Source: a virus
Lineage: Duplodnaviria; Heunggongvirae; Uroviricota; Caudoviricetes
IMG/VR virus record: IMGVR_UViG_3300047493_000037
Span: 94,713-158,712 of that record
Direction: 5' to 3' (one strand)
DNA: 64,000 bases
The notes beneath the pieces are model-generated. The model made no database searches, had not been told where the DNA came from, and was given only the letters and a program-made list of their open reading frames with translations. The translations under genes and the position numbers were made by a program. Positions 12,974 to 43,092 of this stretch are shown piece by piece (positions within the stretch are counted from its first letter, which is position 1; each line of letters starts with the position of its first letter).

Positions 12974-12992
12974 TGTTATTCCTTCTAAAGTT

Positions 12993-13245: not shown

Positions 13246-13280
13246 ATTATACCGTGTATTTCCATTAGATTCAGAAATTA
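13246..13280 (-). promoter_or_regulatory. sigma70-like promoter (GGTATAAT -10) upstream of tRNA array 1
   Basis: Minus-strand reading cacgGTATAATca at 13244-13256, same motif as upstream of arrays 2 and 3. Confidence 0.45.
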
Positions 13281-13843: not shown

Positions 13844-13912
13844 GTCGAGTGTCTTCGCCGTTAGCCTTCAAATAGTTGAGACAGAGTTGAAACATGAGCG
13901 TTACTAGATATT

Positions 13913-14332: not shown

Positions 14333-14341
14333 TGTTGATTA

Positions 14342-14545
14342 TTAGAATCGGAAATTTGTGAAGTGCGATAAGTTAATATACCAGTCTTTTGCTTTAAGAC
14401 TATTACAATCTCTACATCTAGGATTTAACCTAGACTTACTGTTTTTATCGTTTGAGAAGTTAGATTCGTCTAGATCTTGTTTGCAAGAAGAACATGTCAT
14501 TCTTGCATTATACAGTGGTGTTTCCAGCGGGGTTCGAACCCGCAT
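14342..14545 (-). CDS. small Cys-rich (zinc-ribbon-like) protein
   Basis: 67 aa with CSSCKQ...CRDCN. Confidence 0.35.
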   Translation of the reverse strand: MRVRTPLETPLYNARMTCSSCKQDLDESNFSNDKNSKSRLNPRCRDCNSLKAKDWYINLSHFTNFRF

Positions 14546-14591
14546 TTATCGATTGAAAGTCGATTTTCCTAAGCCAATTAGAAGATGGAAA
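14516..14591 (-). tRNA. tRNA-Glu: tRNA-Glu (UUC)
   Basis: Acceptor GUUUCCA/UGGAAAC, anticodon stem AUCGA/UCGAU, loop CUUUCAA, T-arm GCGGG-UUCGAAC-CCCGC. Confidence 0.7.
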
Positions 14592-14593
14592 CG

Positions 14594-14669
14594 TGGAAGC
14601 GCCAATGGGAATCGAACCCATCTTTTCGCATTGAGAATGCGAGGTCCTTAACCAATAGACGATGGCGCC
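14594..14669 (-). tRNA. tRNA-Glu: tRNA-Glu (CUC)
   Basis: Acceptor GGCGCCA/UGGCGCU, anticodon stem UCGCA/UGCGA, loop UUCUCAA, T-arm AUGGG-UUCGAUU-CCCAU. Confidence 0.65.
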
Positions 14670-14781
14670 ATTTTAAGCTGTGATGGGAGATTTAGGTGTA
14701 CGAAGTGAAAACAACGCACACCAAGCGTTCTTGCTCAGATTCCATGAATTGGATTGTGATGTTTGCGTTGTTCATGTGATT

Positions 14782-14815
14782 ATTATACCACGTTTAATTC
14801 TAATGCATCTTCTAA
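14782..14815 (-). promoter_or_regulatory. extended -10 promoter (TGGTATAAT) upstream of tRNA array 2
   Basis: Minus-strand aacgTGGTATAATaa (plus attatacc at 14782-14789). Confidence 0.5.
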
Positions 14816-15028
14816 GGCGCCGTGAGTTCTTTTGTACAGTCTTTCAGCACCTTTTTCAGCTAGTCTTTCAGTGCGATACACTGCCGTGTAAGCCATTTTG
14901 CCTTCTAACTCGCCGTCTTTGTACTCAATGACGTACTTTATCTCCGGATCTCTGCCCATCCCTACTAGCCACATGTAGGTGATAGTAGTTATGCAATAAT
15001 AGTGGCGCCACATGTCATTCACGCCCAT
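14783..15028 (-). CDS. hypothetical protein
   Basis: 81-aa ORF. Confidence 0.4.
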   Translation of the reverse strand: MGVNDMWRHYYCITTITYMWLVGMGRDPEIKYVIEYKDGELEGKMAYTAVYRTERLAEKGAERLYKRTHGALEDALELNVV

Positions 15029-15492
15029 GAAGGTTTAGTGCCGTTCTTCCAAGTAGGAGCTCTCTTGTCTGCAAGCCACTTCTCTTTCATCGTAAGCTTG
15101 TATGCCTCAACAACCTCCATATCCTTATGAGGACTGCAGTTGGCAAACGGAGTTTGAGGTCCTTGAGGCATGAGCACTCTGCCGTCGAATAGAGTGCTAA
15201 AGTATTCGTGGCACTTGTGAATTTTGCCATATCTTAAAGTGTACTGCGCGAGCAAGGAATTAAGGTGAAGAAGTAGCCATACATAATTTCCACGAGAAGC
15301 TCTCACCCAGACAGAGCACGGATGATTTGCGTGAGTTGTCTTATAAGGTCCAGCTCCTCCGGAGAGGTTAATTGCTGTAGATAGCATCTGCGTTGACTCA
15401 AGGATCATCTTGATGACGCGCTTGTCGTCAAGATGATGAGCTGAGATTGCAGGGTCGACATCTGTTACAAATATATTCATCACCAATACCAT
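15019..15492 (-). CDS. denV: T4 endonuclease V-like pyrimidine-dimer DNA glycosylase
   Basis: N-terminus MNIFVTDVDPAISAHHLDDKRV vs T4 DenV [23 protein letters not shown] and C-terminal KRAPTWKNG vs QRPTWYKYYG; similar length. Confidence 0.5.
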   Translation of the reverse strand: MVLVMNIFVTDVDPAISAHHLDDKRVIKMILESTQMLSTAINLSGGAGPYKTTHANHPCSVWVRASRGNYVWLLLHLNSLLAQYTLRYGKIHKCHEYFSTLFDGRVLMPQGPQTPFANCSPHKDMEVVEAYKLTMKEKWLADKRAPTWKNGTKPSWA

Positions 15493-15728
15493 CCAGATAA
15501 TGTTTTCTTAGCAGATTGAAGACCAAGTTTTGCTAAGATAGTGAACACTAAACCTTGTCTCACTTCGGCCATACTAGGCGTATGATAGTACTCTTCCGCC
15601 CCATAAAGAAAGTCAAAGTACTCATCCCACTTCAGCGAATCTTCTTCGCTCGCTTGTTCTTTTATAGAATCAGAAGCACTTTTTGACCTATTGTATTTGC
15701 CTTTTAATTCTTTACTATTTAAACTCAT
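15480..15728 (-). CDS. hypothetical protein
   Basis: 82-aa ORF. Confidence 0.5.
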   Translation of the reverse strand: MSLNSKELKGKYNRSKSASDSIKEQASEEDSLKWDEYFDFLYGAEEYYHTPSMAEVRQGLVFTILAKLGLQSAKKTLSGWYW

Positions 15729-15824
15729 AATTTCATTCTACTAGGTTAAGAAAAATAAATCTAATTCCATCTTGTATTTTTGAACTTTTGTGTTAGAATC
15801 TAGTTATCACCCCAAGGAGGACTT
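15729..15824. promoter_or_regulatory. divergent intergenic region (minus gene 15480..15728 / plus gene 15825..16136)
   Basis: AT-rich 96 bp with TTGAAC and TAGAAT elements and AGGAGG SD before the plus-strand ATG. Confidence 0.35.
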
Positions 15825-16136
15825 ATGAGTCAGACCGTTAATAAGGGTGCCATATCAAAGCTTTGCATCAAGAACAAAGCTCCAGGCACTATTTCCACAG
15901 GCGCAAATACAGAAGTAACACTCGACGGCCAAAAGCTAGGCGGAGTTTCTTTTCTAAAGATGGAGTTTAAACCTAAGAACGTTGTCAAGATTACTATGGA
16001 GATGTATTGTGAAGTTGAAGTCGATGTCGACGTTCAACTAGAGCAAACATCTATCAACCCAGACGAAGAGATTAAGATAGGCGATGCTGTCTATGTCTTA
16101 GGTAAGTACGAAACAGTTGGTTTCCCTAAGAAGTAA
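15825..16136 (+). CDS. hypothetical protein (plus-strand)
   Basis: 103-aa ORF with perfect AAGGAGG SD 6 nt upstream of ATG. Confidence 0.6.
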   Translation: MSQTVNKGAISKLCIKNKAPGTISTGANTEVTLDGQKLGGVSFLKMEFKPKNVVKITMEMYCEVEVDVDVQLEQTSINPDEEIKIGDAVYVLGKYETVGFPKK

Positions 16137-16229
16137 TGGCGGAAGGTAGGGGAGTTGAACCCATGGGCGTTTTTTAGGCGCCGGCAGTTTAGCAAACTGC
16201 TGTGGAAAACCGACATCCACGTACCTTCC
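16137..16229 (-). tRNA. tRNA-Ser: tRNA-Ser (GCU), class II with long variable arm
   Basis: Acceptor GGAAGGU/ACCUUCC, D-stem GUGG/CCAC, anticodon stem GCAGU/ACUGC, loop UUGCUAA, long variable hairpin; 93 nt. Confidence 0.6.
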
Positions 16230-16230
16230 A

Positions 16231-16548
16231 TTAATCCTCAAACGTTAGACCAATTGCTTGCTCAAGTGTCTTATCGATCCAGTTTTGATAGGCTGCATCA
16301 AGTATCTTTTGCTTATCTTTGTTGGCAAAGAAACTTTGCGCCCCAATCAGCCGTTTCCTGACAGTTTCTAACTTACACACCTTATCGTTTTCTATAGCTA
16401 GTAAGCGAACTGTCACCATTTGGTCATGAAATATTGGTTCTTCAGGATCTAACCTTGCAGACATGTTGTCAAAGTTAAAATACCAACAGTCTACTAATAC
16501 TTCTGTTTGTTGAACAACGTTTTGTTTCTTCTTGCTAAATGGCCACAT
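16231..16548 (-). CDS. hypothetical protein
   Basis: 105-aa ORF fitting exactly between two tRNA genes. Confidence 0.5.
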   Translation of the reverse strand: MWPFSKKKQNVVQQTEVLVDCWYFNFDNMSARLDPEEPIFHDQMVTVRLLAIENDKVCKLETVRKRLIGAQSFFANKDKQKILDAAYQNWIDKTLEQAIGLTFED

Positions 16549-16553
16549 AAATT

Positions 16554-16624
16554 TGGTGTCCCCGACAGGAATCGAACCTGCCTATCAGCTTTAGGAAAAC
16601 CGAGACCTATCCTTAGGCGGGGAC
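16554..16624 (-). tRNA. tRNA (71 nt; anticodon arm not resolved)
   Basis: Perfect acceptor GUCCCCG/CGGGGAC, T-arm GCAGG-UUCGAUU-CCUGU, CCA encoded; middle region shares GGAUAGGU element with tRNA 16811..16881. Confidence 0.45.
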
Positions 16625-16625
16625 A

Positions 16626-16702
16626 TGGTGCTCGAGATGGGAGTCGAACCCACAACACCTAGGCTCTCGACCTAGTACCTCTTCCAGTTGGGTTACTCAA
16701 GC
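16626..16702 (-). tRNA. tRNA-Leu: tRNA with Leu anticodon GAG, class-I architecture
   Basis: Acceptor GCUUGAG/CUCGAGC, anticodon stem CUAGG/CCUAG, loop UCGAGAG (C33), D-arm UAACCCAACUGGAAGAGGU. Confidence 0.45.
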
Positions 16703-16810
16703 AAATTTTTTACTCTTGTACACCGGGTACGACATAAATACCCGCCATTCAAGTTTTTCGTCTATTACTTCTAGCTTTTTAAGCAAATTTAATAGATCTG
16801 TCATCATATC

Positions 16811-16881
16811 TGGTGGTCCCAGAAGGAGTCGAACCTTCTTCCCAAGCTTAGAAGGCTCGGTACCTATCCACAGGTGGGACC
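16811..16881 (-). tRNA. tRNA (71 nt; anticodon arm not resolved)
   Basis: Perfect acceptor GGUCCCA/UGGGACC, T-arm GAAGG-UUCGACU-CCUUC, CCA encoded. Confidence 0.45.
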
Positions 16882-16967
16882 AATATTTGCCCGACTAGGA
16901 GTTCAACTACCGCGCCGGGACTTCAGCGTCGCCAACGTCTTTTCAGGGCGTTCTTACGCTTTTATCT

Positions 16968-17044
16968 TGGTGCTCCGAGAGGGATTCGAACCCTCAACAT
17001 TTCGTTTTTGAGACGAACGACTCTTCCAGTTGGTCTACCGAAGC
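16968..17044 (-). tRNA. tRNA-Leu: tRNA with Leu anticodon CAA, class-I architecture
   Basis: Acceptor GCUUCGG/UCGGAGC, anticodon stem UUCGU/ACGAA, loop CUCAAAA, D-arm UAGACCAACUGGAAGAGUC, T-arm GAGGG-UUCGAAU-CCCUC. Confidence 0.5.
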
Positions 17045-17050
17045 AAATTT

Positions 17051-17126
17051 TGGTGCCCACCATCGGATTCGAACCGATACTGTACGCGTTTTAAGTGCGC
17101 TGACTCTGCCATTGGTCTACGCGGGC
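17051..17126 (-). tRNA. tRNA-Leu: tRNA with Leu anticodon UAA, class-I architecture
   Basis: Acceptor GCCCGCG/GGUGGGC (6/7), loop CUUAAAA, D-arm UAGACCAAUGGCAGAGUC, T-arm AUCGG-UUCGAAU-CCGAU. Confidence 0.5.
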
Positions 17127-17132
17127 AAATTT

Positions 17133-17209
17133 TGGTGGGGCCATTCCATTAGTCGGACTGCAGCGACCCCTAGTTGGACTAATCAACTCTCGACGATCTA
17201 TCGAGAATT
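17133..17209 (-). tRNA. degenerate tRNA-like element (CCA end and acceptor-like hairpin, no T-loop)
   Basis: Begins like neighbouring tRNAs (aaattttggtgggg) but folds only into GGGGUCG...UGGCCCC hairpin plus short stem-loops. Confidence 0.2.
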
Positions 17210-17300
17210 TGGTGGAGCGTGAAGGATTTGAACCATTCGTCTACCAACCCTACTTATTTTTCGACAGCGGTTTTACAGACCGTCGTAGGGAACACACTCC
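17210..17300 (-). tRNA. tRNA-Tyr: tRNA-Tyr (GUA), class II
   Basis: Acceptor GGAGUGU/ACGCUCC, anticodon stem CGGU/ACCG, loop CUGUAAA, long variable region, T-loop UUCAAAU; 91 nt. Confidence 0.5.
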
Positions 17301-17305
17301 AAATT

Positions 17306-17391
17306 TGGCGGAAGGTGGACGAATCGAACGCCGGACCTTTCGGTCCCCTCAGGGTTCAAACCTGATTGCCAACCATTTAGCGGCACCTTCC
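17306..17391 (-). tRNA. tRNA-Ser: tRNA-Ser (UGA), class II
   Basis: Acceptor GGAAGGU/ACCUUCC, anticodon stem UCAGG/CCUGA, loop UUUGAAC, variable hairpin GGACC-GAAA-GGUCC. Confidence 0.6.
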
Positions 17392-17597
17392 ATAAACTAA
17401 TTGAGACAAGCTATAGCCGCGATTCTGTCTTCGCCTCGCGGCGGAGAACATCATTCGTCTAGGAGAGTTGTCGCCAACTCCCTCAAGCTTGGTACCCGTA
17501 AGCACTACGAGCCGTAGTATAGCTTACCTATTTCCAATTGCTGCACGTAAAGATTGCTCGTTTCAACCCGCACTGAAGCGGTTACGTTCCTGTAGCT

Positions 17598-17999
17598 CTA
17601 ATTCTCAGGTCGCCCTGGGCAGTTGTTATCTGCTACGTTGCTCTCACAGTCGCGAACTTCCTCGACCCTTGGAAGGATCGCGATGTTCTCGCTCATCTCA
17701 AACTTATTAGACTTCTTACTATTTTCCTCTAATGTTAGAAGTTGTAAATTCCAAGGCACATGAAGTCCGCTAACATTTTCGCCATTCACTGGGACGATAT
17801 GGTCCACAGTTAGGTTTAACTCTTTAGCTGATTTATAAAGAGCCTTCATTTTATCTTTTTGCTCTTTTGTTAACCATTTTGGACTAGCCAAACGTCGTTT
17901 CGCCCTATATTCAGCAGTTAAAAAGTTCTTAATATGTTGATTTTCACTTCGCCATTTTCTTTGACGACCTTTTTCGTCAGTATCTGCTCTATATTGCAT
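17598..17999 (-). CDS. HNH homing endonuclease
   Basis: LTVDHIVPVNGENVSGLHVPWNLQLLTLEENSKK (HNH motif); between tRNA arrays. Confidence 0.7.
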   Translation of the reverse strand: MQYRADTDEKGRQRKWRSENQHIKNFLTAEYRAKRRLASPKWLTKEQKDKMKALYKSAKELNLTVDHIVPVNGENVSGLHVPWNLQLLTLEENSKKSNKFEMSENIAILPRVEEVRDCESNVADNNCPGRPEN

Positions 18000-18054
18000 A
18001 ATTCTTTTTTTATTAGACTTATAATAATTTGCACCCGCACCTCTTGTGCAAATT

Positions 18055-18131
18055 TGGTGCCGATTGTTGGTTCCGCCCCAACGATCTTCTCCTCTTCAGG
18101 GAGACGCTTCCACTAGGTTAGCTTAATCGGC
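18055..18131 (-). tRNA. tRNA-Phe: tRNA-Phe (GAA) with non-canonical T-loop (GGCGGAA)
   Basis: Perfect acceptor GCCGAUU/AAUCGGC, anticodon stem UCUCC/GGAGA, loop CUGAAGA; T-stem GUUGG/CCAAC, but the loop lacks the UUCRANY consensus. Confidence 0.45.
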
Positions 18132-18140
18132 ATGTAACTT

Positions 18141-18216
18141 TGGCTGGGAAGGCAGGGATCGAACCTGCGACGTCTTGATTAACAGTCAAGCGGACTACCA
18201 ACTGTCCTACTTCCCA
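18141..18216 (-). tRNA. tRNA-Asn: tRNA-Asn (GUU)
   Basis: Acceptor UGGGAAG/CUUCCCA, D-arm GGAC-AGUUGGUA-GUCC, anticodon stem CUUGA/UCAAG, loop CUGUUAA, T-arm GCAGG-UUCGAUC-CCUGC. Confidence 0.7.
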
Positions 18217-19311: not shown

Positions 19312-20223
19312 TTACTTACCGGTTGCGTGCTTTGCGATTGAGTAACAGTACTTCGAGAAGTTAGTCTTCTGAAGCTTGTTATCGTTTAGAAACTGTGAGA
19401 GCCAGTCAGGATAGTTGCCACCGTGATGCTTGATCTCAACTATGATGTGCTCCTTGGGAGAATAGTTGTCGATCATAGACATGAGAGCGCTCTTCTCTTC
19501 ACTAGCCTTGCTAAGCTCAGCGCTGATCCCGCTAGGGATAACATCGAGAACCTTATACTGAACTCCCTCGTCAAATGTTACCCTAAGTCCTGCATCGTTA
19601 GCAGTGCCGTCTGTGTAAGCGCGACGAACATACTCAGTCTCGCAAGAGGGACGGAGGTGGAAGAGTTCTAAAGCTTGATTGATGTCAGCCACGCGTTTCA
19701 CCAAGTCTGGGAGAGCAACGTTGGGATTCATCTTGGCTAGTTGAATGGTTGGAGTAAGTGGAGCACCCTTCTTAAAGGTCTCCATCGTGTCCTTAGGAAC
19801 CTTGATGCGAAACTTGTCAGAGATGTCGCCGTGTTTTGCCTTGATCTCTAGGAAAGCGAAGTCGTTCTTCTGCAGCTTCCCGTTAGGTGCGTACTCTCTA
19901 GTCCTGAGTTTAAACCTGCTGTTTGCCTTGGACATATGATGTTGAACCATGTCAAGGTTAGAGGAATCAAAGTAGACGGACTTCATTAAGTTGAAGTTGG
20001 TGCCCTTATCTGGATAATCAGCCTTCATGTGCTTGCTAAGGAGTCTAACAAGCTCATCCTTAAAGGCCTTTGGGATCAAGTACTTATCTTCAAAACGTCT
20101 AAATAAAGAAGTATCAGAAGACTTCATCAAACCTTCTACGATGTACTTATCTGCGTAAGATTTTGCGAATGTCTCTGTCGTGATTGGTTCTGGTGTTGCC
20201 CACTGATTATTGTTCTTATGCAT
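19312..20223 (-). CDS. VTC/CYTH-like triphosphate tunnel metalloenzyme domain protein (polyphosphate-polymerase-like)
   Basis: 303 aa; RFEDKYLI start motif plus alternating charged strands (FKLRTREY, AFLEIKAK, LRVTFDEG, IIVEIKHH) typical of TTM/VTC domains; assignment tentative. Confidence 0.5.
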   Translation of the reverse strand: MHKNNNQWATPEPITTETFAKSYADKYIVEGLMKSSDTSLFRRFEDKYLIPKAFKDELVRLLSKHMKADYPDKGTNFNLMKSVYFDSSNLDMVQHHMSKANSRFKLRTREYAPNGKLQKNDFAFLEIKAKHGDISDKFRIKVPKDTMETFKKGAPLTPTIQLAKMNPNVALPDLVKRVADINQALELFHLRPSCETEYVRRAYTDGTANDAGLRVTFDEGVQYKVLDVIPSGISAELSKASEEKSALMSMIDNYSPKEHIIVEIKHHGGNYPDWLSQFLNDNKLQKTNFSKYCYSIAKHATGK

Positions 20224-25453: not shown

Positions 25454-26854
25454 TCATCTGCGCCCCTTGTTGGCTGCGGTATCCGGAATTTGAACTGTAT
25501 CCCCTAAACGTTTCAAAGGATGGTCTTTGGTCCCGCCTTTAGAGATGATGAACAACGTAGTTGGCCACTTCTCACCAGGCTTCATCCAAGACTCCACGGG
25601 AACATCGCCGTAGCATCCGTCGGTAATAACCACGCTGAGATCCGGCTTCTTTTTGAGGATTTCCGCCATCACTGGAGTGAGGTCAGTGCCTCCACTCTGG
25701 ATGTCCTCGCGCTTGATGCGCGTACCAACGCGGTACTCCTCATTCTTGTATAGAGCTGTGTGAAAGAAACCAAGTTTGCACTTGCGTGCACCAACCCTAA
25801 GGAACTGATCCACCACCTCGAGAAACTCGTTAGCTTCCTCGATGGAGATCGACCCAGAAGTATCGATGAAGTTCTGCAACTTAGGCAAATCGCCAACCTT
25901 AGTTCCTGGAGCTTTGTTGCCAAAGCGCTTACTCTTGCGAGTCCAGGTGTTCTTGCGATCGTGACCTGCAGCGTGCTTCTTCATAGCCAAGAGCAAGAGA
26001 GCTTTGTAGTTCAGCTCTGCACGGCGAGACTTGATATCCTCAAGAAGCTCCTTGACAGAGTCAGGCAAGCTCGAGTAGTCAAGGCGAGCCTTAACCATGG
26101 CGCGCTTGACAAGCTCCTCGGTGGCATCGAGCATCTCGCCTTCTTCAGCAGCTCCATCCCACATGTGCTCGTCGAGAGTCTGAGGCAAATCGCCTGTGTC
26201 AGCTCCACCACCGGCATTGCCTTCTCCATCGCCTTCACACTCGTCATCTTTGTCAGGGTCGTCAAAGCGCTGAAGCAACTTCTCGTAATAATATTCCATG
26301 GTTTTGTTCTTGTCCCAAGGAATCTGCTTCTGAGTCTTAACGTCGATGTCAAAATAGTCTTCGACAAAGATGCCGCGACCTGGACACATGTCATTCTCAC
26401 AAGGCTTGCGCTCCTCAGGCTTAGGGCACTGAGTGCAACCTTTTGGCAAGTTCTTGATGTACTGATTGATCGCCATGTCTGCTGCAACGTTCATCAGCAT
26501 GCGCTTGCGAGCGGAGATCTTGAGGAAGGGAACACGGAGTGGATGTTTGTGAGTAATGTGGCTCAACTCATGGAGTAAGACCGCTTTCTGCTCAAGAAGA
26601 TTGAGCTTCTTGCAGAAGAAATATGGGTTGATGATCATGTCCCAGCGCTTTGCATCAGTGTTAAACATGATGCCTGCAGTTGGGATGACGTGCCCATAGC
26701 TGATCGTGAGGCACTGAAGAACAGAACCAAGGAATGGGTGAGTCTTGGAACACTCGTAGATGGCCGAAGCCAACGCACGCGTCTTCAACTCAACCGAAAC
26801 TTGCTCGTGATCCAACAACTCTTTAGTAATCTTTGGACGAACGCGTGATGACAT
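25454..26854 (-). CDS. VWA-domain protein with N-terminal putative HExxH metallopeptidase domain (CobT-like / MoxR partner)
   Basis: LLHELSHITHKH (HExxH) N-terminal; C-terminal MIDAS DTSGSIS...T...D; 466 aa; lies next to MoxR ATPase gene. Confidence 0.75.
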   Translation of the reverse strand: MSSRVRPKITKELLDHEQVSVELKTRALASAIYECSKTHPFLGSVLQCLTISYGHVIPTAGIMFNTDAKRWDMIINPYFFCKKLNLLEQKAVLLHELSHITHKHPLRVPFLKISARKRMLMNVAADMAINQYIKNLPKGCTQCPKPEERKPCENDMCPGRGIFVEDYFDIDVKTQKQIPWDKNKTMEYYYEKLLQRFDDPDKDDECEGDGEGNAGGGADTGDLPQTLDEHMWDGAAEEGEMLDATEELVKRAMVKARLDYSSLPDSVKELLEDIKSRRAELNYKALLLLAMKKHAAGHDRKNTWTRKSKRFGNKAPGTKVGDLPKLQNFIDTSGSISIEEANEFLEVVDQFLRVGARKCKLGFFHTALYKNEEYRVGTRIKREDIQSGGTDLTPVMAEILKKKPDLSVVITDGCYGDVPVESWMKPGEKWPTTLFIISKGGTKDHPLKRLGDTVQIPDTAANKGRR

Positions 26855-27210
26855 TAATTATCTCCCTGGGCTTCTATAGTTTCGGAATCGATGTTAAATA
26901 ACGTAACTTCTACAAACCAAGTTTCTAGCTTGGCAATAAATTCGTCAATTTCTGGGCCTTGCATGCCGTGAAAGAAGTCGCCCCAATCGCCACGACTGTA
27001 TCTTACTTCTTTAAATTGCAGCCTTTTTATACCACAGTCTTCGTGTATTCGCCAGATGCGCTCTTTGCTTTGCAGTTGATCTTGCGACGAGCCATCAAAT
27101 GTGTACGTGCAGTCCTCATTAAATCGAATTGAGGTCCTCATGTTATCTTCAAGAATTATACTTCTCATGGAATATCCGTCGTTGTACCAAATTGAAAAGA
27201 GCCTAAGCAC
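26854..27210 (-). CDS. hypothetical protein
   Basis: 118-aa ORF (start may be internal ATG at 27166-27168). Confidence 0.45.
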   Translation of the reverse strand: MLRLFSIWYNDGYSMRSIILEDNMRTSIRFNEDCTYTFDGSSQDQLQSKERIWRIHEDCGIKRLQFKEVRYSRGDWGDFFHGMQGPEIDEFIAKLETWFVEVTLFNIDSETIEAQGDN

Positions 27211-27386
27211 TTCTCACAGGTTACATCTCTAAAGTTGTTAGAGCCGTCGTCACCCCGATCAGCGCACAGGTAGATGTTCTCGTCCCATCTCCTATAGAAG
27301 TGAACTGGCTTTACTTTCTCGCTGCTGAATAATCTAAGTAGTTTTTTGATCACAGAATAAAAAGACCGGGAGCAGTGGAGGAACAT
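27165..27386 (-). CDS. doubtful small ORF (5' end overlaps terminator hairpin)
   Basis: 73-aa ORF whose first 8 codons span the 27363-27401 hairpin + T-tract. Confidence 0.2.
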   Translation of the reverse strand: MFLHCSRSFYSVIKKLLRLFSSEKVKPVHFYRRWDENIYLCADRGDDGSNNFRDVTCEKCLGSFQFGTTTDIP

Positions 27387-27401
27387 CCGCTCCCGGTCAA
27401 C
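27363..27401 (-). terminator. rho-independent terminator after MoxR ATPase gene
   Basis: Minus-strand GACCGGGAGC-ggatgttcctccact-GCTCCCGGTC (10-bp GC-rich stem) followed by TTTTTATT. Confidence 0.7.
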
Positions 27402-27407
27402 TTGGGC

Positions 27408-28547
27408 TTACTTACCAGCTTTCCCTGCGTCCACTGCCCTCGACAACTTCAGGTTTGCCTTGAGCACATCGATGAGCTCAGGATGGCGCTTGCAGAAGTC
27501 GTTGAAGAAGTCACTCATGCGACCTTTCGTCTGCTTGAAACCGCACTGCTTGATGAGGTTAACTGCGTAATCGGCGGGGATGATCTTGGCAACTTCTGCC
27601 ATCGTATCCTCGTCGATTTGGTCAGTCTTGCAGTCTTTCTTTGCTCCGCCGTACGCCTTCGTGATGCTCTCGACCGTAGCCGCAAGCATGTCGCCCTTGT
27701 ACGTATCAGGGTGAGAGTGTTCCTTCAGCTTAGCCAAAGCAGCACCCTTGTCTTTCAAGATCTCGGTTGCCGTGACTGGAGCTTGGTCATAGCAATACTT
27801 ATGGTACTCGTTACCGATGTCTTTGCCGAGGATCGCGCCAACCACGATGCGATGGAGTTGGCGATTCTTGCGAACACCAGCTTTTTCAGCAGCTTGGACT
27901 TTGGACCAGGTACGAGGCGAGATGTACTTGCCGCCCTGACCAAGTTCCTTGGTGGTTTTGTAGATCCAGATTGCGTCTCCGACGAAGCGCTGGACGCTTT
28001 CGTTCCAGTTGTTGTTGTCCATGAACTCCATGAACGTCAACGGATCATAGTCGATCTCGTACTCTTCGAAGCGATCCTTGAGAGCAGCGTCCATGGTGTT
28101 AACGTCATACTCAGACGAATCAGGGTTGATGCAACCAGCAATCAACCAGCCGGGAGGAAGAGTGTAGTTGTGGATCTTGCGATCGGTGAGAACCTGCATG
28201 AGGCAGTTCATGACGCCGGTCGTGCCACGATTTGGCTCTTCGAGAAGGATCAAGCCTTCGCCTTCGGTTGGCCAGAACTCAGGGAGACGATGGCAGGTAC
28301 GAACCACGCCATTTGCGTCTTTAGCAGTTTCTGGGAAGCCAATGAGATCGGGAGCTTCCATGTAGGCGATGCGAAGATCAACGAAGCCGAAGTTCGGATT
28401 GCGTTCTTTCTGCTTCTTAACCCACTGCTGACAGATTTGGCTCTTGCCAAGACCTGCTTCGCCAGTGAACAAAGGATTCATCACTTCGTCCGCCTTTCGT
28501 GCTGCAAGTGCGGTATCCATGATAGTCATGATATGGGACGGTTTCAT
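27408..28547 (-). CDS. MoxR-family AAA+ ATPase (CobS/CbbQ/NorQ-like)
   Basis: Walker A GEAGLGKS, Walker B LILLEEPNR; 379 aa. Confidence 0.85.
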   Translation of the reverse strand: MKPSHIMTIMDTALAARKADEVMNPLFTGEAGLGKSQICQQWVKKQKERNPNFGFVDLRIAYMEAPDLIGFPETAKDANGVVRTCHRLPEFWPTEGEGLILLEEPNRGTTGVMNCLMQVLTDRKIHNYTLPPGWLIAGCINPDSSEYDVNTMDAALKDRFEEYEIDYDPLTFMEFMDNNNWNESVQRFVGDAIWIYKTTKELGQGGKYISPRTWSKVQAAEKAGVRKNRQLHRIVVGAILGKDIGNEYHKYCYDQAPVTATEILKDKGAALAKLKEHSHPDTYKGDMLAATVESITKAYGGAKKDCKTDQIDEDTMAEVAKIIPADYAVNLIKQCGFKQTKGRMSDFFNDFCKRHPELIDVLKANLKLSRAVDAGKAGK

Positions 28548-28596: not shown

Positions 28597-28920
28597 TTAA
28601 TGAACTTCACGCGAGGTGGGTTCACCAATTTCTGCCACAGTTTTGAACTTCTCGTAAAGCAGCGCAGAGAGCTGCGAACGAGCAAGGTAGGCTTCTGCGG
28701 TGACAAGGTCACCATCTTTCTCACAGTTTCGAGACATCTTGTCGAAGATCTCAACGGAGAAAGCTAAAATCTGAATAGCTGATAGGATCTCGTCGGTGCG
28801 AAGCTCCATCGAGAAACTACCTTCCTGGATAGGCGGCTTCGGATCAAAGGACGCAAGCTTGGCTACTGTAATCTCACTCTGAATCTTCTTCGTCTTCTTC
28901 GTTTTCTTCTTTGTTGGCAC
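28597..28920 (-). CDS. hypothetical protein
   Basis: 107 aa, basic N-terminus (KKKTKKTKK). Confidence 0.5.
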   Translation of the reverse strand: MPTKKKTKKTKKIQSEITVAKLASFDPKPPIQEGSFSMELRTDEILSAIQILAFSVEIFDKMSRNCEKDGDLVTAEAYLARSQLSALLYEKFKTVAEIGEPTSREVH

Positions 28921-29215
28921 TGATCACCTCATCTACATATTTTTTTCTCAACGCTTCAGGTAATGCTGACAAATCAATAGTTGGTGCGGCTTTCTTGGCC
29001 TTCTTAACTTTCGCTTCTCCGTGGTAGAGATCAGCTTCATCCATGGTGATAATGGTTGCTGCACCACCTCCACCGCTCACAGTTGACTTAACATAGTCAC
29101 TCTTACCGTGAGCGTTAGCAGGCACAACTGTGACCTTACCGCCTTTTGCTAGGAATTCTTCAATGGTTTGAGTCTTTAACAATGTATGTTCTCCAGACAA
29201 AGCGTCGCCAATCAT
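28874..29215 (-). CDS. hypothetical protein, small family C (EF-x-AKGGK N-motif, IDLSALPEAL C-motif)
   Basis: 113 aa; EEFLAKGGKVTVVP and TIDLSALPEALRKKY shared with 59520..59717; acidic tail. Confidence 0.5.
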   Translation of the reverse strand: MIGDALSGEHTLLKTQTIEEFLAKGGKVTVVPANAHGKSDYVKSTVSGGGGAATIITMDEADLYHGEAKVKKAKKAAPTIDLSALPEALRKKYVDEVISANKEENEEDEEDSE

Positions 29216-29351
29216 TGGTCAAATTTAATCTAAACAGCAATTTGAACAAGTTGTCTTGTCCCTGTCGTTTCAGAAATTGCAACTCTTCGGATGGAATTTT
29301 GACAATCTTTCCACCACGAGCTATGAACTCGTGAATTGATTCATTTCTCAC
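29160..29351 (-). CDS. family C N-motif fragment (possible frameshifted extra copy)
   Basis: Begins MRNESIHEFIARGGKIVKIP, then overlaps 28874..29215 out of frame. Confidence 0.3.
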   Translation of the reverse strand: MRNESIHEFIARGGKIVKIPSEELQFLKRQGQDNLFKLLFRLNLTNDWRRFVWRTYIVKDSNH

Positions 29352-29894: not shown

Positions 29895-30722
29895 ATGATG
29901 GCTGAAAAGAGCGAATTAACAGATAGCCTAATTTATGGCATCGACTTAAAGGCCCGCCGTATCTACTTTGGTGCAGCTGGTGACGTCTCAGAGGACACAC
30001 CAGGGGACTTTACCCAAGCCTCTGTTGAGCTTGCTATCAGGTCAATGCACAAGATGGCCTTAGAAGCACCAGGGAAGCCTATAGAGATACATATGAATAG
30101 CTACGGCGGCGATCCATATGCCATGCTTAGATTGCATGATGAGATCCTGAGTTGCCCATGTCAGGTTAAGTTCTTTGGGGGTGGCGCTATCATGTCTGCT
30201 GCTACCTGGATTATGGTGGCATGCGATGAGCGATACCTATATCCTCATGCCACTGTTATGGTCCATGATGGCTCAGAGGGCTACGAAGGCAAGCACACAG
30301 ACGTTCAAATTAACGCAGCAGAGAACAGACGCTTGCAGGACTTGCTTTACGACATATATACTAGCAACACTAGGATGCCTAAAGAATTCTGGCAAGATGT
30401 ATGTCAGCGCGATTTATACTTAACTGCTGGCGAAGCAGTGTCACTTGGCATGGCTGATAAGGTAGTTGAACCTAGGAAACGCGGCAACCTAAGAAAGGCT
30501 AGGCAAGCTGCTCTCAAGAAGGCTCCAGATGTCGACATGCGTGCGCTCATCACTGATATATATACTAGGTTGAACAAGGTGAAAGTGCCAAAGCTCGAAC
30601 TTAATCCTATCGCCAAAGAACCGGTTGATCCTCAGCTGGTCGTTGACGATCGTCCACTAGAAAATGAAAAAGCTCCACAACCAGCGGTTGCAGAGCCTCT
30701 CAAGAATACTCCTAACACTTAA
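29895..30722 (+). CDS. ClpP-family (S14) serine protease-like protein with C-terminal extension
   Basis: IEIHMNSYGGDPYAML (cf. IYLYINSPGG), Ser in GGAIMSAAT, His in MVHDGSEGYEG, Asp in CQRD region; 275 aa, plus strand. Confidence 0.7.
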   Translation: MMAEKSELTDSLIYGIDLKARRIYFGAAGDVSEDTPGDFTQASVELAIRSMHKMALEAPGKPIEIHMNSYGGDPYAMLRLHDEILSCPCQVKFFGGGAIMSAATWIMVACDERYLYPHATVMVHDGSEGYEGKHTDVQINAAENRRLQDLLYDIYTSNTRMPKEFWQDVCQRDLYLTAGEAVSLGMADKVVEPRKRGNLRKARQAALKKAPDVDMRALITDIYTRLNKVKVPKLELNPIAKEPVDPQLVVDDRPLENEKAPQPAVAEPLKNTPNT

Positions 30723-31366: not shown

Positions 31367-32568
31367 TTACTTAGAGTCACCATGAGAAAGCTTCTCATTG
31401 ATGCGCATCAGGCTTTCAAGACCAACGGCTTCGAACGGATCAGCAGTTTTGCCGCCCGCACTTCCGCCAGTGACCATCATGGTTGGCAGGGTAATGCTAG
31501 CGAGCTCGTGAGCGACGCCAATAGCAGTTTCCTTGGCAATGGTGGCCTTCTCAAGAGGAGTCAAGCCTGCAGCAACCTTGAGGCGATTGACGTCGGCCAG
31601 GGCTTTACCAGCCGTGACTTCCGCAATGGCATCCTGCTCAGCTTGCTTGCGCTTGAGCTGGGAGACCTCGAACTCCTTCTCAGCGATCGTCACTTCTTTG
31701 ATCTTCTGCACGTCTTGCTCAGCCTTCTCGATTGCGATCTTGGCATTGCCTTGCTCGCGAGCAGTGATGGCATCTTGCTTCGCTTTTTCAGCGTTAGCAC
31801 GAGCCACAACCTTCATCTGCTCAGCTTCCTTCTTCTTCTGAATGAGTGCTTCGATGGTAGGATCGAAGTCCAATTCCTTGATGGTGAAGGAGACAACTTC
31901 AATGCCGTACTGGGTCAAAGGAGAAGTCTTGCGAATGATAGGTTGACCCTTGTCATCGCGCTTCACAAACACTTCGTGATCAATGAGCTCATTGCCGTCA
32001 GCATCCTTGGACTTGATCTCACGAGCGGTGACATCGTAGATGCCGTTCTTGATCTGGTCTTCCACGAGTGACGTGAACTCTGAGCGTCGAGTCGAATAAG
32101 ACTCTTCAGCTTTCATGAGAGTGGCAGTTTGCATCATCGCTTCTGCGACAGTTTGGCGGATAAGGTCGTGTTTCAAGGCTTCGTAGGATTTGAAGTCTTG
32201 GTGAACCTTGAGCCGTTTGACTCCATCAACAGGGAGTCGATACTTGATAGCGCCGCTGATATCAGCAGTACCACCGTCGTTGAACCTAACGTGAATCGGA
32301 TCAGACTCAGCACCATCGCCACCGTCGAGCTTCGACTTGGAGAAGTAATGCATGTCAGAGATCTGATACGTAGTGACGTCTGCGAACAGACGAGCGTACG
32401 AACCAGGTTGGTCAATGACAGTCATGTTACCGGTCACTGCGGCTTGCTTGATCTGATAGAAGCCGGCGTTATTAGTGCCGACCAAGCTTCGGCCAACGCC
32501 GACGAGCAAGAAGAGACCTACCACACCTGCAACGAGGAGGGATAGGAGTTTCACTTTACGAAAATCCA
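31367..32568 (-). CDS. SPFH/band-7 (flotillin/YqiK)-like membrane protein
   Basis: N-terminal TM after ATG 32566-32568 (AAAGGAAA SD), globular domain then ~120-aa Ala/Glu/Lys coiled coil typical of flotillin-like proteins. Confidence 0.5.
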
Positions 32569-32701
32569 TATTGTTTCCTTTCGGGGAACTGGGATTAAGA
32601 CGTTGACTGACTGCTGCCATTTTTACACACCTCTAATACTAAAATGCCCACCACAGAATATATCTGTGATAGGCATCATTAGTTTCGGAATTTTATTTAG
32701 A

Positions 32702-33621: not shown

Positions 33622-33698
33622 TTTGGTCCACCACCCAGGAATCGAACCTGGGTCAAAGGCTTATAAGACCCCTTGGAGCAACCAGCCCCGACCATGGT
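33622..33698 (-). tRNA. isolated tRNA, tentative anticodon UAU (Ile, AUA-reading)
   Basis: Acceptor CCACCAU/GUGGUGG, T-arm CCAGG-UUCGAUU-CCUGG, CCA encoded, loop CUUAUAA; TGTATAAT -10 immediately upstream (33708-33713 complement). Confidence 0.45.
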
Positions 33699-33700
33699 GG

Positions 33701-36400: not shown

Positions 36401-37867
36401 TCATCTCAAATTGCTGAGTAAGCGCTTACGAATATCGCCAAGACTGTCATCGCGAAGCAGCTTACCGTTTAGATAAACAGGCTGCAACAACCCACCCTTT
36501 TCTTCGGCAGGAGTAACTTGCTGACTCAGAGTGAGATCCTCGTTGACTCGCAGCAAACCCTTTGCAGACTTCTTGACGCCAGAGTCTGTTTTAGGAGCCT
36601 TGAACATGTCGACTGGAGTACCGTTGATAACACCGTACGTTGCTTTAAGAGCCATGCCAAACGTGTCACGGGTGTTATACTGATACGTATACGAGCCGAT
36701 GCCCAAAACAACGTTGGTAGAAGCAAAGCCTTTAGCCTTGAGACCAGCAATGATTTGTTCAGCGCGTTCCAGGGTGATAGAGTCTCCATAGATCAAGCCA
36801 ACGTGCGGATCAAGGCGTTTGTATCCAGTAGACGTAGTCGTTCCACCGAAGATGTCCCAGAGCGTCTCGATGCTACCCTTATACTGAGGTGAACCAGCAG
36901 GTGCGTCAGGATCGCCGCAGATGATCTTTACAGGATCACCGGAGTCAGGACGGAAGACCAGCTTACCTGGGCGAGCCATAATAACTGGCTTCAACTCGGT
37001 TGCCTTATTAGTGATAGTGTCCCAGTAGTCCCACGTGTCAGAGACAACAGAGAGCACTGCAGAGAGCGGATAAACGTCCTTGAGAAGGCGTAGGAAGGTT
37101 TCCACTTCAGTTTCTTGACCACCCATGCACATGACGGAGTGCTCTGTGGCAGGCACGGAGCCACCGATGAGTTCCTTCTCACAGTCGGCATTGTAATAAT
37201 CTTCAAGATAGTCGATCGAAGGGATCGTATCAGTGCCAGTGAAGCTCAAGAGGTGAGCAGCACCAGAGCGAGCCGCGCTCTCAGGCCCATCCATGCCGCG
37301 GAAGGAGAAGTCGTGACCTTGCCACTGGACGAATCCTTCAACCAGCTCAGGATCAGTTTCTTTGGCTGCTGCCGTGAGAACCTTACGATACTCAAACGCG
37401 ATCGTAGCGTTAGTGGATTGCTTCCAAGTGTAAGAAGACAAGACAGTCTCAAGGAAGTTAGGAACCCAGAAGAAGTCTGGGAGAGTGTTGGTGATCGTGA
37501 ACACAGGAACGCCGATCGGAACCAAAGTGCCCTCTGGAAGCGCTTTCACTTCGATGGGAAGGTAACCAAGGTCGTGAAGAGCCGCGATGTGATCGTAGGT
37601 GACCGCACCTGGTCCGAGATAGTTGTCGATGCGGCGCTTGTAGCGGAGAAGAACCTTATCCCTTGGTTGGCTGAAGAAGCTGTCTTGCCAAACTTGATGA
37701 AGCTCTTTCAAGCCGCCTTGCAAACCAAACAACACAGTTGATGTATAGCGTGAATCGCGAGCGCTGCGAAAGGTTGCATTAGTGTAAACCTTCTGCGAAC
37801 CCTTTGGGTATTGACTGCGATGATCGACCTTGTATCCATCTTTCAAATTAACTGCATTCAACTTCAT
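36401..37867 (-). CDS. nicotinamide phosphoribosyltransferase (NAMPT/NadV) family protein
   Basis: 488 aa; N-terminal DGYKVDHRSQYP (cf. TDSYKVTHYKQY) and overall NAMPT-like length and organisation; ATGA overlap with upstream PRS-family gene. Confidence 0.8.
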   Translation of the reverse strand: MKLNAVNLKDGYKVDHRSQYPKGSQKVYTNATFRSARDSRYTSTVLFGLQGGLKELHQVWQDSFFSQPRDKVLLRYKRRIDNYLGPGAVTYDHIAALHDLGYLPIEVKALPEGTLVPIGVPVFTITNTLPDFFWVPNFLETVLSSYTWKQSTNATIAFEYRKVLTAAAKETDPELVEGFVQWQGHDFSFRGMDGPESAARSGAAHLLSFTGTDTIPSIDYLEDYYNADCEKELIGGSVPATEHSVMCMGGQETEVETFLRLLKDVYPLSAVLSVVSDTWDYWDTITNKATELKPVIMARPGKLVFRPDSGDPVKIICGDPDAPAGSPQYKGSIETLWDIFGGTTTSTGYKRLDPHVGLIYGDSITLERAEQIIAGLKAKGFASTNVVLGIGSYTYQYNTRDTFGMALKATYGVINGTPVDMFKAPKTDSGVKKSAKGLLRVNEDLTLSQQVTPAEEKGGLLQPVYLNGKLLRDDSLGDIRKRLLSNLR

Positions 37868-38655
37868 ACCTTGTATCCATCCTTATTTCTAGTTAAACTA
37901 TTAGTAGTATACACAGTGTCAATTCCGTTAGCCAATAGAAGCTCTTGACCTTTACTGAACAGTCCGTGGGTCACACAGAGATCAACCTTAATATTGTGGT
38001 CTTGGCTTCTCAAGAGCTTTGCCACGCTTAGGAACGTAGCTCCTCCGTCACATAAGTCATCAACGATGAGAAACCTTTTACCAGGTTTTCCTTCATCCTT
38101 AAAGACAACCTTGTGCCCAGTGATCTCACCGGTGAGTTGGTTTCGAGTCTTATCGCAGACGATGTGAGAGTATTGATTGAGGTCTTCGTTGTAGCGATCT
38201 TGCGCTCCAACATCCGGGAAGACGATGTAATCAGGCTCAGAAGCCTTGATAACATATTCCTGGAACTCAGTAGGATAGATATTGACAAAGTTCTTGATAA
38301 GACTTCCAGCCTTAAGAGGGTTATGAACGTCGTTGGAAGAAACCTTATAGAAGTTCATCGAGTTAATAAGGTCCGCTATGACTTCAAAATTAAACGTTGA
38401 GGAGTTAGAGACCTCCTTGTCTTGACGAGCGTAAGGCATGTACGGGACATGCAAGCTCACCGCAGCAAGCGGTCCAAGGAGTTTCCTTAGCGAGAGTAGG
38501 TCAAGCACTTCACGCTCGCTCTCAAACCGCCAGTCAATGTCGACACTGCTACTTAGTAGGATGTCCTCTGGAAGCTTCCACACCTGAGAAGTACCATCGG
38601 GAAAGATGGTAGGCTTAAGGACGTAAGAACTATTTGCGGTTGCAACTGTGATCAT
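37864..38655 (-). CDS. ribose-phosphate pyrophosphokinase (PRS) family protein
   Basis: PYMPYARQDK (cf. Prs PYFGYARQDR) and type-I PRT motif FLIVDDLCDGGATF; 263 aa. Confidence 0.75.
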   Translation of the reverse strand: MITVATANSSYVLKPTIFPDGTSQVWKLPEDILLSSSVDIDWRFESEREVLDLLSLRKLLGPLAAVSLHVPYMPYARQDKEVSNSSTFNFEVIADLINSMNFYKVSSNDVHNPLKAGSLIKNFVNIYPTEFQEYVIKASEPDYIVFPDVGAQDRYNEDLNQYSHIVCDKTRNQLTGEITGHKVVFKDEGKPGKRFLIVDDLCDGGATFLSVAKLLRSQDHNIKVDLCVTHGLFSKGQELLLANGIDTVYTTNSLTRNKDGYKV

Positions 38656-41847: not shown

Positions 41848-42555
41848 ATGTAAATATATGATCAGAATTATAGGAGTTTACCGAGCAGATGGAATAAGCT
41901 GTAGTAGGTCTGGTGGTTTCCTACGAATATGCCACCGCAACGTTTTATGATGATGTCATCTGCTCTATCAAGAATTGCATTTTTGGTATTAAACAACACG
42001 CGTGTTTATATAATCAGAATAAGCGGCCACGAAGCAGTGTCAAGGTATTAATCTTGTAACCCTAAGTTTGGATAACAATAAGACCACATAGTACGTAGAA
42101 ACTTCTTTATTATAGGTATCTAACTCATCGAACAATAAAGCAAACGATTTTATGACACGATCTGGCTTACGATAGCTCTTCATGAGCACATCTCGCAACC
42201 GATGTCGCAGAAGCCGCACTCTGCACAGCCATAGCCGACCGGCCACTCATACATATAAAGACAAGGATCAACACTGAGACGCCTGAGGAGAAGTATCAGT
42301 CTAGTTTTCGCTTGGTGATCTGTTTGAAAGCGCATCACAGACGATCCGCATTAATGAAGATAACGCGGCCACGCTGTCTCCTACTGATTATAGTGAGATG
42401 CATCATTAGACGGGTAAGATCCGATATTGAGATATAGTGCCGATGCGTAAAACGCATAGAGAATTTGGTTGCAAGGCCAGTAGTCGAAACTGGTACACCT
42501 TCATGCTTATGAGGCATGCGAGCCGCCGTTGCTCGATCCTTGCGATCTAAATTAT

Positions 42556-42723: not shown

Positions 42724-43092
42724 TTATACAAACGTTTTCACATACGCTTTCAAATCATCTGGCAAGATGCTCTCATCAATAAGGCTCAATGCTTTCGGTG
42801 CCTTAGATGTAGACACAGCCGGTCCAACTCCGTAAATTTGATCGCCGTTAAGTTCCTTAGCCTTCTTAAGGTGATTCATCACCATAGAACGAGCATAAGC
42901 AAACACTTCTCCGCTGTTAGTGCGGTCTTTGCTGTACTCTATAGTCCCGGTGTAGATACCTAGGCCGATTTCGTGCTTAAGACTTTCTAGCTGTACGTTT
43001 GTCAGCATCACTAGTGCTATCTCTTTGTTTAGCTTCAATGACGGTAACATTCTCTGTACTGCTTCGATCACTGCTTGCTTCTGGCCTATCAT
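42724..43092 (-). CDS. hypothetical protein
   Basis: 122-aa ORF with AAGGTAGGA SD; 5' end overlaps next ORF. Confidence 0.45.
   Translation of the reverse strand: MIGQKQAVIEAVQRMLPSLKLNKEIALVMLTNVQLESLKHEIGLGIYTGTIEYSKDRTNSGEVFAYARSMVMNHLKKAKELNGDQIYGVGPAVSTSKAPKALSLIDESILPDDLKAYVKTFV

Follow-up and report, generated by a model that had tools for sequence, protein, structure and literature searches.

Two portable short motifs, one resembling the RNA-polymerase-binding segment of SutA, on small proteins of a clade of large uncultured phages

Small early phage proteins such as T7 Gp2, T4 AsiA and Xp10 P7 bind the surface of the host RNA polymerase (RNAP) and redirect or shut off transcription, and they do so as folded domains placed on the β′ jaw, on sigma region 4 or on the β flap. 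We know of no protein of this type which carries a SutA-type linear motif for the β protrusion, nor of such a phage RNAP binder with a second, portable tail that is shared with structural-module proteins. To our knowledge, the bacterial protein SutA, known from one branch of the Gammaproteobacteria, is the only characterised factor that uses the groove of the β protrusion. In this article, we focus on a 64,000-nucleotide stretch of DNA (hereafter the window) from a tailed phage (Caudoviricetes; IMG/VR record IMGVR_UViG_3300047493_000037, positions 94,713 to 158,712), and on two short motifs which recur in its small proteins: an N-terminal one (the N-motif), which resembles part of the RNAP-binding segment of SutA, and a C-terminal one (the C-motif), which ends several otherwise unrelated proteins. 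Both are found in a small protein, here called A, and in its shorter paralogue B. Window open reading frames (ORFs) are designated A to E and the family of one protein from relatives F; L-numbers denote contigs or loci of related phages, and P-numbers homologous proteins.

Two described systems are closest to this locus. In the cryo-electron microscopy structure of the SutA–RNAP complex, helix 57–76 and strand 81–84 of SutA clasp the β protrusion, and alanine substitution of L67, M71, F74, L75, V81, I84, K60 or R64 weakens binding (PMC9300723). SutA without its acidic N-terminal tail (SutA-ΔN) retains an effect on RNAP, being an inhibitor of transcription in vitro (bioRxiv 10.1101/423384). The second system is the toolbelt of phage T4, in which gp33, gp55 and the DNA polymerase gp43 bear interchangeable C-terminal peptides for the gp45 clamp; of these, gp33 is a small, acidic and largely unstructured RNAP binder, whose short C-terminal peptide stands behind a flexible, divergent linker (PMC2988020).

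The N-motif has the consensus [ET]-[IV]-x-E-[FY]-[LMI]-A-[RK]-G-G-K-[IV]-x-x-[IV]-P. In the C-motif, a basic stretch precedes [IV]-D-x-[SN]-A-L-P-x-x-L-[RK]-x-K-[YF]; the motif is conserved throughout the phage clade, and is carried by the 20-mer peptide KKAAPTIDLSALPEALRKKY. An earlier note, made from the letters of the window alone, had described these motifs as marks of a dispersed family of small proteins, and the four ORFs to which it had drawn attention, A, B, C and D, all lie on the minus strand where it had placed them. In a six-frame pattern search of the window, EF.A[RK]GGK occurs exactly three times, at 29135–29158 (A), 29307–29330 (C) and 59658–59681 (B), and [ILV]D.SALP likewise exactly three times, at 28958–28978 (A), 59553–59573 (B) and 62124–62144 (D). 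The looser pattern D.S.LP..L adds a fourth copy of the C-motif at 42751–42777, at the C-terminus of ORF E. Across 200 dinucleotide-preserving shuffles the expected counts were 0.0 for EF.A[RK]GGK, 0.015 for [ILV]D.SALP and 0.2 for D.S.LP..L, none of the 200 reached the observed counts, and shuffling of residues agreed; a chance origin of the motifs, which the earlier note had left as its possible refutation, is thereby ruled out. Hidden Markov models (HMMs) of the two motifs match just the named ORFs in the window, the next C-motif match having an E-value of 0.28. A weak and non-significant C-motif-like stretch, LDNDSLPQALRDKYE, lies near the N-terminus, that is, internally, in the ORF at 9112..9525 on the minus strand (E-values of 0.28–0.57 with the motif HMMs). 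The C-motif copies share only 17–27 of 42 nucleotides, and per pair of copies three to six identical residues are written with differing codons, such as TCA and AGC for serine. What selection maintains is thus the peptide rather than a DNA element, because the same residues are encoded by different codons, and a repeat at the DNA level is ruled out as the explanation of the C-motif copies.

Protein A is encoded at 28874..29215 (minus strand) and has 113 amino acids if read from its ATG. Its true start is probably the TTG at 29182, since a Shine–Dalgarno (SD) sequence, GGAG, lies 8 nucleotides upstream of it and the resulting N-terminus, MLKTQTIEEF, fits the family consensus MKKTETIAEF; the protein would then have 102 amino acids. 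From the N-terminus onwards, A comprises the N-motif (TIEEFLAKGGKVTVVPAN.., 29093..29167), which aligns with SutA residues 70–98, a middle motif (TMDEADLYHGE, 29015..29047) with the family consensus [ML][ST][LM]xEADL[YF][YH]GE, a Lys-rich stretch, the C-motif (IDLSALPEALRKKY, 28937..28978) and an acidic tail (28877..28909), all on the minus strand. A copy identical to A (100 %; protein P0001) is encoded on a contig of 176,837 bp, and altogether 54 homologues of about 98 amino acids were found, which keep both motifs as well as the fixed architecture; the conservation in related genomes, whose lack the earlier note had named as a refutation, is therefore present. The family order reads MKKTET[IV]AEFLARGGKIT.VP, a variable linker, [ML][ST][LM].EADL[YF]YGE, a Lys-rich stretch, TIDLSALPEALRKKYVDEVI and an acidic tail. 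Distant members on IMG/VR contigs of 126–176 kb retain the architecture, with C-motifs that have drifted to forms such as IDLNALPPALRAKF, LNLDALPEELKKRL and INFAALPASLLKY. In an alignment of 26 sequences (A1; 25 A-family proteins and B), L63 of the middle motif is invariant and A61, G66 and E67 nearly so, the motif being kept in the distant IMG/VR members as well; in the C-motif of the A family, D81, L85, P86, L89, K92 and Y93 are invariant. The AlphaFold2 (AF2) model of A has a predicted local distance difference test score (pLDDT) of 65.6 and a predicted template modelling score (pTM) of 0.19, with three short helices which coincide with the three motifs (H58–64 for the middle one), and A is predicted to be disordered elsewhere.

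The surroundings of A are also preserved. In relatives, the order is a ClpP gene on the opposite strand, a gene for about 150 to 156 amino acids, A, an overlapping gene for about 99 amino acids, a MoxR ATPase gene and a DUF2201 gene. In the window, the next gene (28597..28920, minus strand, 107 amino acids) overlaps the 3′ end of A by 47 nucleotides, so that the acidic tail of A, EENEEDEEDSE, is, in the other frame, the Lys-rich N-terminus PTKKKTKKTKK of its neighbour; the same overlap is kept in relatives (L001 6263–6562, L055 2763–3053 and L057 2814–3098). A scan for sigma-70 promoters and terminators around A gave nothing above shuffle background.

Protein B (59520..59717, minus strand, 65 amino acids) is a short paralogue of A, which has only the N-motif (59646..59696) and the C-motif (59532..59573), and is preceded by a strong SD sequence, AAGGAG, ahead of its ATG. 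The homology of A and B, some 30 kb apart, which the earlier note had proposed, is borne out, and the families of both are conserved in related phages. Orthologues of B adjoin D in relatives; that in L006 (12577–12768) has both motifs, and that in L005 (12484–12681) has the N-motif and a degenerate tail, EVDWNLIPEHII. ORF C (29160..29351, minus strand, 63 amino acids) starts with GTG, has no SD sequence, and carries only the N-motif (core 29307..29330), which is followed by a Trp/Arg/Phe-rich tail. It had been taken for a frameshifted fragment; the third copy of the N-motif is real and its five hydrophobic positions are kept, and the frameshift is not, for the ORF is intact. An origin as a frameshifted, A-like pseudogene is ruled out, as no middle motif or C-motif occurs in any downstream frame. 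No counterpart of ORF C is found in the syntenic relatives L001, L055 and L057/L058, and the flanking genes are 20 nucleotides apart in L055. ORF C is specific to this genome, either as a lineage-specific small gene or as a decaying insertion, and its expression is uncertain.

The likeness of the N-motif to SutA, which the earlier note did not make out, was seen by several routes. Protein A matches the Pfam family PF20661 (SutA-RBD) with an E-value of 1.4e-5 (24.8 bits), B with 0.019 (14.7 bits) and C with 0.012 (15.3 bits), in each case at the same profile positions, 14–33 of 35. The family is matched by 23 of the 26 sequences of A1 (E ≤ 0.1, the best at 9e-7), and P0001 and three other members carry the PF20661.3 tag in the source database. 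Alignment of A1 against 16 Pseudomonas SutA sequences with hhalign gave 90.7 % with an E-value of 1.3e-6 over 26 columns, which pair A residues 17–41 with SutA residues 70–98. Five of the six hydrophobic contacts of SutA are kept, the equivalents of M71, F74, L75, V81 and I84 in A, B and C being I/V, F, L/M/I, V/I and V/I. SutA (PF20661; PDB 7XL3, 7XL4 and 7F0R) and the A family are further alike in being small and intrinsically disordered (by prediction for A), in sharing the pattern M/I-x-E-F-L-x-R/K-G-G-K-V/I-x-x-I/V-(x)-P with a subsequent Pro/Lys-rich stretch, and in having an acidic disordered tail, which is C-terminal in the A family and N-terminal in SutA, where it drives activation. 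They differ in that the phage proteins have two extra motifs which SutA does not have, EADLYYGE and the C-motif, and in that they are phage-encoded, with hosts possibly outside the Pseudomonadales/Oceanospirillales. No description of SutA-like phage proteins was found in the literature searched. The N-motif also stands at the N-terminus of unrelated proteins on other viral contigs, such as a 62-amino-acid protein with nothing but the N-motif (L024, about 10001..10132), a protein with a Cys-rich, zinc-ribbon-like tail containing several CxxC pairs (L026, about 1706..2191), and proteins with a GCRCxxC tail (L027, about 2855..3145, and L028). The N-motif therefore behaves as a portable N-terminal tag. 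Weak N-motif matches (B residues 9–25, A residues 17–33) were also noted to the NCBIfam family NF058628, 'PFL_1563 family small protein' (E 0.041), and to phrog_23871 (E 0.17), and there may be further small-protein families of bacteria and phages with the same N-motif.

The C-motif ends at least five families: A, B, D together with E, F, and a family of 150-amino-acid proteins. Protein D (62094..62588, minus strand) is a helical and highly conserved protein of 164 amino acids, with the C-motif at its end (IDVSALPPELQHLV, 62103..62144). The earlier note had recorded that it ends with the same peptide as A and B, which the pattern search substantiates, and in most of the aligned sample of its more than 440 homologues the tail K..K.[IV]D[FVLY][SN]ALP.EL..K[YF] is kept. 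The best 120 homologues listed are 56–100 % identical to D, and none has a Pfam domain. The AF2 model of D (pLDDT 84) retrieved nothing from the PDB with Foldseek at E < 1, and one uncharacterised phage protein from BFVD. Protein E (42724..43092, minus strand, 122 amino acids), of which the earlier note made no mention, is a short protein paralogous to the N-terminal domain of D (29 % identity, including QK[EQ]AV and LNG), matches the C-motif HMM with an E-value of 2e-5, and bears its C-motif at 42739..42780 (IDESILPDDLKAYV), ending in LIDESILPDDLKAYVKTFV and the stop codon. Some paralogues of D have another conserved tail, ELSAEQI-x-x-L-x-x-AGL-x-x-[LF], as in L006 (2225..2698), where the gene and D share a contig, the gene being about 7 kb upstream, and in P0123, P0137, P0156, P0158 and P0166; this may represent a second tail class. 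A few genes downstream of D and B, a protein of the Acb5 family (PF26761) is encoded in relatives (L004 14643..14924, L005 12870..13148 and L006 13060..13332).

A search of 1.84 billion representative sequences with the tail profile returned 23 matches at E ≤ 1e-3, and these were members of the phage clade (A-family proteins, fragments of D, the B-like protein P0188 and new carriers) and three eukaryotic repeat proteins only. Among the new carriers, P0182 (439 amino acids) and P0183 (447 amino acids) are 30 % identical to each other and have three and two tandem copies of the C-motif, respectively; P0187 has 150 amino acids. Proteins of the P0183 family (F; 380–450 amino acids) are encoded on the same contigs as A, including the closest long relative (176,504 bp), within a structural module of conserved order: p608, the acidic p241 (a putative scaffold), the major capsid protein, Tmk, RNase H, p106, F, p614, p278 and p485, where p278 belongs to an adaptor or tail-fibre PHROG and the capsid protein is SPO1-like. 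The tails of F consist of Pro/Ala-rich linkers with one to three copies of the C-motif, such as VDVSALPPELAAKFG and ANLPPALRAKFGGK, and are degenerate in some genomes (for example IWSQIPDDLKAAI). Elsewhere than in A, the C-motif comes after Lys-rich or Pro/Ala-rich linkers, at times as two or three tandem copies. In the same module, a segment of about 30 residues, [AG]GYGGAG.PT.L..GGV.Q.ESL, is common to the C-terminal region of the 608-amino-acid protease-like protein (L029 2446..4272, residues 535–574) and to the N-terminal region of the capsid protein (L029 5539..6993, residues 25–63), and recurs in L033, L039, L040, L044, L050 and L052; it may be a common propeptide or a prohead-protease processing site.

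The reading that we favour, with belief and doubt about evenly matched, is that the two motifs are independent short linear motifs which serve as portable docking tags in a clade of uncultured phages of about 125–180 kb, and that A and B bridge RNAP to a common partner, or hub. In terms of sequence, the N-motif resembles a truncated RNAP-binding segment of the SutA type, which would comprise the final turns of the SutA helix, then the GG turn, the β-strand that is added to the β-protrusion (β1) sheet of RNAP, and part of the C-tail. Since the N-motif is a segment of this type, A, B and, if it is expressed, C would dock on the β protrusion of the host RNAP. Having neither the wedge loop nor the acidic N-terminal tail, A and B probably do not open the lobe in the way of SutA; their role would be that of an anchor or adaptor, or of an inhibitor comparable to SutA-ΔN in vitro. 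The C-motif is most likely a clade-specific docking peptide for one common partner, which at least five unrelated families have acquired: its fixed terminal position, flexible flanks, tandem copies and confinement to one clade are the signature of such a peptide. That signature does not discriminate between a docking site, a degron and a targeting signal. The earlier note had suggested all three from the shared C-terminal peptide; that the peptide is a portable module on unrelated proteins is upheld, and the tests for a degron, for capsid targeting and for a clamp had no positive outcome. A and B themselves amount to little beyond the two tags on a chain that is predicted, for A, to be disordered.

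For the hub, T4 offers the nearest precedent. As in the T4 toolbelt, one peptide is found on otherwise unrelated proteins of the same phage (here A, B, D and E, with F and P0187 in relatives), and from this likeness we infer that a single hub exists. The differences are that the sequences resemble neither gp33 nor the clamp-binding consensus of T4 or of bacteria, that the proposed RNAP contact is the β protrusion instead of the β flap used in T4, and that no DNA polymerase occurs among the carriers found and no clamp gene was seen in the window. As there is no sequence relationship, T4 is an analogy and not a case of membership. Families related to gp33 or to clamps were absent from Pfam, NCBIfam and PHROG scans of A, B and D, and no sigma or polymerase gene was found among the window ORFs scanned. 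Resemblances of the C-motif to the C-terminal peptide of FtsZ and to a β-clamp peptide (QLSLPL) were supported by no search, and were dropped. A ring-shaped or oligomeric DNA-bound factor such as a clamp, a component of the virion or procapsid, and RNAP or sigma itself are modest possibilities for the hub, none of them ahead of the other two; a protease or chaperone is a slighter one, and some other partner a little stronger than any of these.

Several observations weigh against this reading. On the side of the N-motif, all three PF20661 scores are below the gathering threshold of 29.3 bits and cover only 20 of the 35 profile positions, and against the NCBIfam equivalog of SutA, NF041490, A scores 12.2 bits (E 0.24) where the cut-off is 145. 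L67, K60, R64, the wedge loop (54–57) and the acidic N-terminal domain of SutA have no counterpart in the phage proteins; the phage proteins start only at about SutA residue 65, which accounts for the three missing residues, nothing stands upstream of the motif in the family N-terminus MKKTETIAEF, and of A, B and C only A has an acidic tract, at its C-terminal end. SutA is confined to the Pseudomonadales/Oceanospirillales, and the sole host hint for the phage clade comes from a metagenome-assembled genome (MAG) assigned to the Cytophagales. With regard to the C-motif, the tail profile matched no PDB chain sequence (chains of at least 20 residues), no polymerase-like protein was among its matches, and no clamp gene was present among the 36 larger window ORFs scanned, the window being 64 of the roughly 177 kb of the phage. 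Alignment of the tail profile A4 with the C-termini of the putative scaffold p241 (A7) by hhalign gave 0.8 %, and covariation between the tails of A and F within genomes was not significant (8 of 24 permutations, n = 4 genomes). In addition, the C-motif is dispensable for some members, as the D paralogue with another tail and the degenerate F tails show.

Part of this evidence is also what favours a rival account in which the likeness of the N-motif to SutA is convergent or otherwise unrelated, the motif binding a target other than RNAP, and in which the C-peptide is an inherited structural element that was spread by recombination and has no common partner. The similarity extends over about 26 residues (20 in the Pfam match) and, on sequence grounds, could indeed be convergent; every database match falls under its curated threshold, a profile of full-length A, run against PDB chain sequences, failed to bring up the SutA chain, the host lineage may be outside the known range of SutA, and no covariation between carriers was detected. 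Against it, the three paralogous copies in the window and nearly all of the aligned sequences pick PF20661 from among 24,736 families at the same profile positions, and A, B and C alike retain hydrophobic residues at the five contact positions. Moreover, each motif keeps to one terminus on proteins that are otherwise unrelated, and in A, the one carrier modelled, the surroundings of the motifs are predicted to be disordered; this is hard to square with a folded element. We regard this account as rather improbable.

An account that concerns the C-motif alone, and which we consider unlikely, makes it a virion-targeting or cargo-loading signal for the procapsid interior, the scaffold or the portal, by which A, B, D, E and F would enter the capsid and leave it together with the DNA, so that the RNAP binders would be delivered at infection, as T4 delivers Alt. 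Gene F is conserved inside the head–neck–tail module and evolves fast (32–37 % identity, against 72–84 % for the capsid protein), the tandem copies that F carries behind Pro/Ala-rich linkers would be apt for multivalent attachment to a lattice, and the confinement of the motif to the phage clade suggests a phage-encoded partner. The position of F is, however, weak evidence, because the module also holds the non-structural Tmk and RNase H. Further points against targeting are the low value obtained with the scaffold C-terminus and the fact that the tail profile showed no likeness to a solved cargo or scaffold peptide in the PDB sequences; D is conserved far more than is usual for internal or ejected proteins, and A, B, D and E lie in a small-gene block with transfer RNA (tRNA) genes, outside the structural module. 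Searches of PDB sequences with the D and F profiles gave nothing.

Least probable, in our view, is that the C-motif serves as a degron or protease-adaptor tether, through which early proteins would be destroyed at a set time by the phage ClpP together with an unfoldase of host or phage origin. In favour of this, the motif is exposed and C-terminal, a ClpP-family gene lies two genes from A in an arrangement kept in relatives, and in one relative only a stand-alone 67-amino-acid protein with a ClpX-type C4 zinc finger (PF06689; 26.6 bits, cut-off 27) is encoded two genes after a D paralogue (L004 11022..11225). Against it, 15–35 residues follow the motif in the A family, so that it does not form the very end of the chain, degrons do not typically occur as the tandem copies behind long linkers that are seen in a structural-module protein, the PDB chains left unmatched by the profile include SspB and other adaptors, the 70-amino-acid Cys-rich protein of the window (60479..60691) has no ClpX zinc-finger match, and the AAA protein at 34555..35553 matches the generic AAA family PF00004 only, with no ClpX-specific family reported. 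A resemblance to the XB peptide of SspB found no support in the literature searched.

Returning to the docking tags, a stronger form of the favoured reading can be stated, which we put forward as tentative and somewhat doubtful. It holds that the clade uses a private two-tag code, in which a SutA-derived tag addresses the β protrusion of RNAP and the C-peptide addresses one multimeric hub for at least five proteins, structural-module and early ones alike. In that case, the role of A and B would be that of minimal adaptors linking transcription with the hub, the whole would be a second toolbelt, independent of that formed by gp45, gp33 and gp55 of T4, and it would be the first use of the SutA site by a phage.

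The source phage is uncultured, tRNA-rich and about 177 kb in size. The window is almost entirely a minus-strand run of small genes, and contains 26 tRNA genes, all on the minus strand and covering many amino acids, including tRNA-Ile(tat) and two tRNA-Met(cat); most are clustered between 9.9 and 18.2 kb (9930..18216), and others are at 33624..33700 and 42466..42544. Besides the genes already mentioned, the minus strand encodes NAMPT and ribose-phosphate pyrophosphokinase (PRPP synthase) for NAD salvage (36401..38655), a VTC-domain protein (19312..20223), a MoxR-like ATPase with a DUF2201 partner of the von Willebrand factor A/metallopeptidase type (25454..28547) and an SPFH/Band-7 protein (31367..32620); the ClpP-family protease is at 29895..30722, and a DNA ligase and a class II ribonucleotide reductase were also identified. 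Two genes of the thymidylate synthase family (3340..4194 and 51035..51910, minus strand) comprise a strong match (PHROG E 5e-71) and a divergent one (Pfam E 2.6e-9), and the divergent one could be a hydroxymethylase-type enzyme acting on deoxynucleoside monophosphates for base modification. Cultured relatives were sought by megablast of 8 kb against 50,697 phage records, which gave no match, and tblastn of A, D and P0183 against the same number of deposited phage genomes gave none either; deposited phages provided only distant matches, namely to the MoxR ATPase (about 30 %) and to SPO1-like capsid proteins, the major capsid protein of the relatives being 32 % identical to those of SPO1-like Bacillus phages. 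The host hint comes from a clade contig (L054, LNEN01000305.1; 146,658 bp, complete-looking) found inside a 'Cytophagales bacterium' MAG, which is either an indication of a Bacteroidota host or a binning artefact.

Both elements proposed for the locus, an RNAP anchor of the SutA type and a shared tail in the manner of a toolbelt, are of known kinds. A motif that matches the binding half of the SutA domain heads many proteins of large uncultured phages, with different effector tails; on the proposed reading, the β protrusion would be a general viral docking site, and the N-motif a 20-residue tag. The C-motif in turn defines at least five protein families which probably meet at one partner, and the identity of that partner could give a context to the orphan protein D, with its numerous homologues, and to a protein of the structural module.

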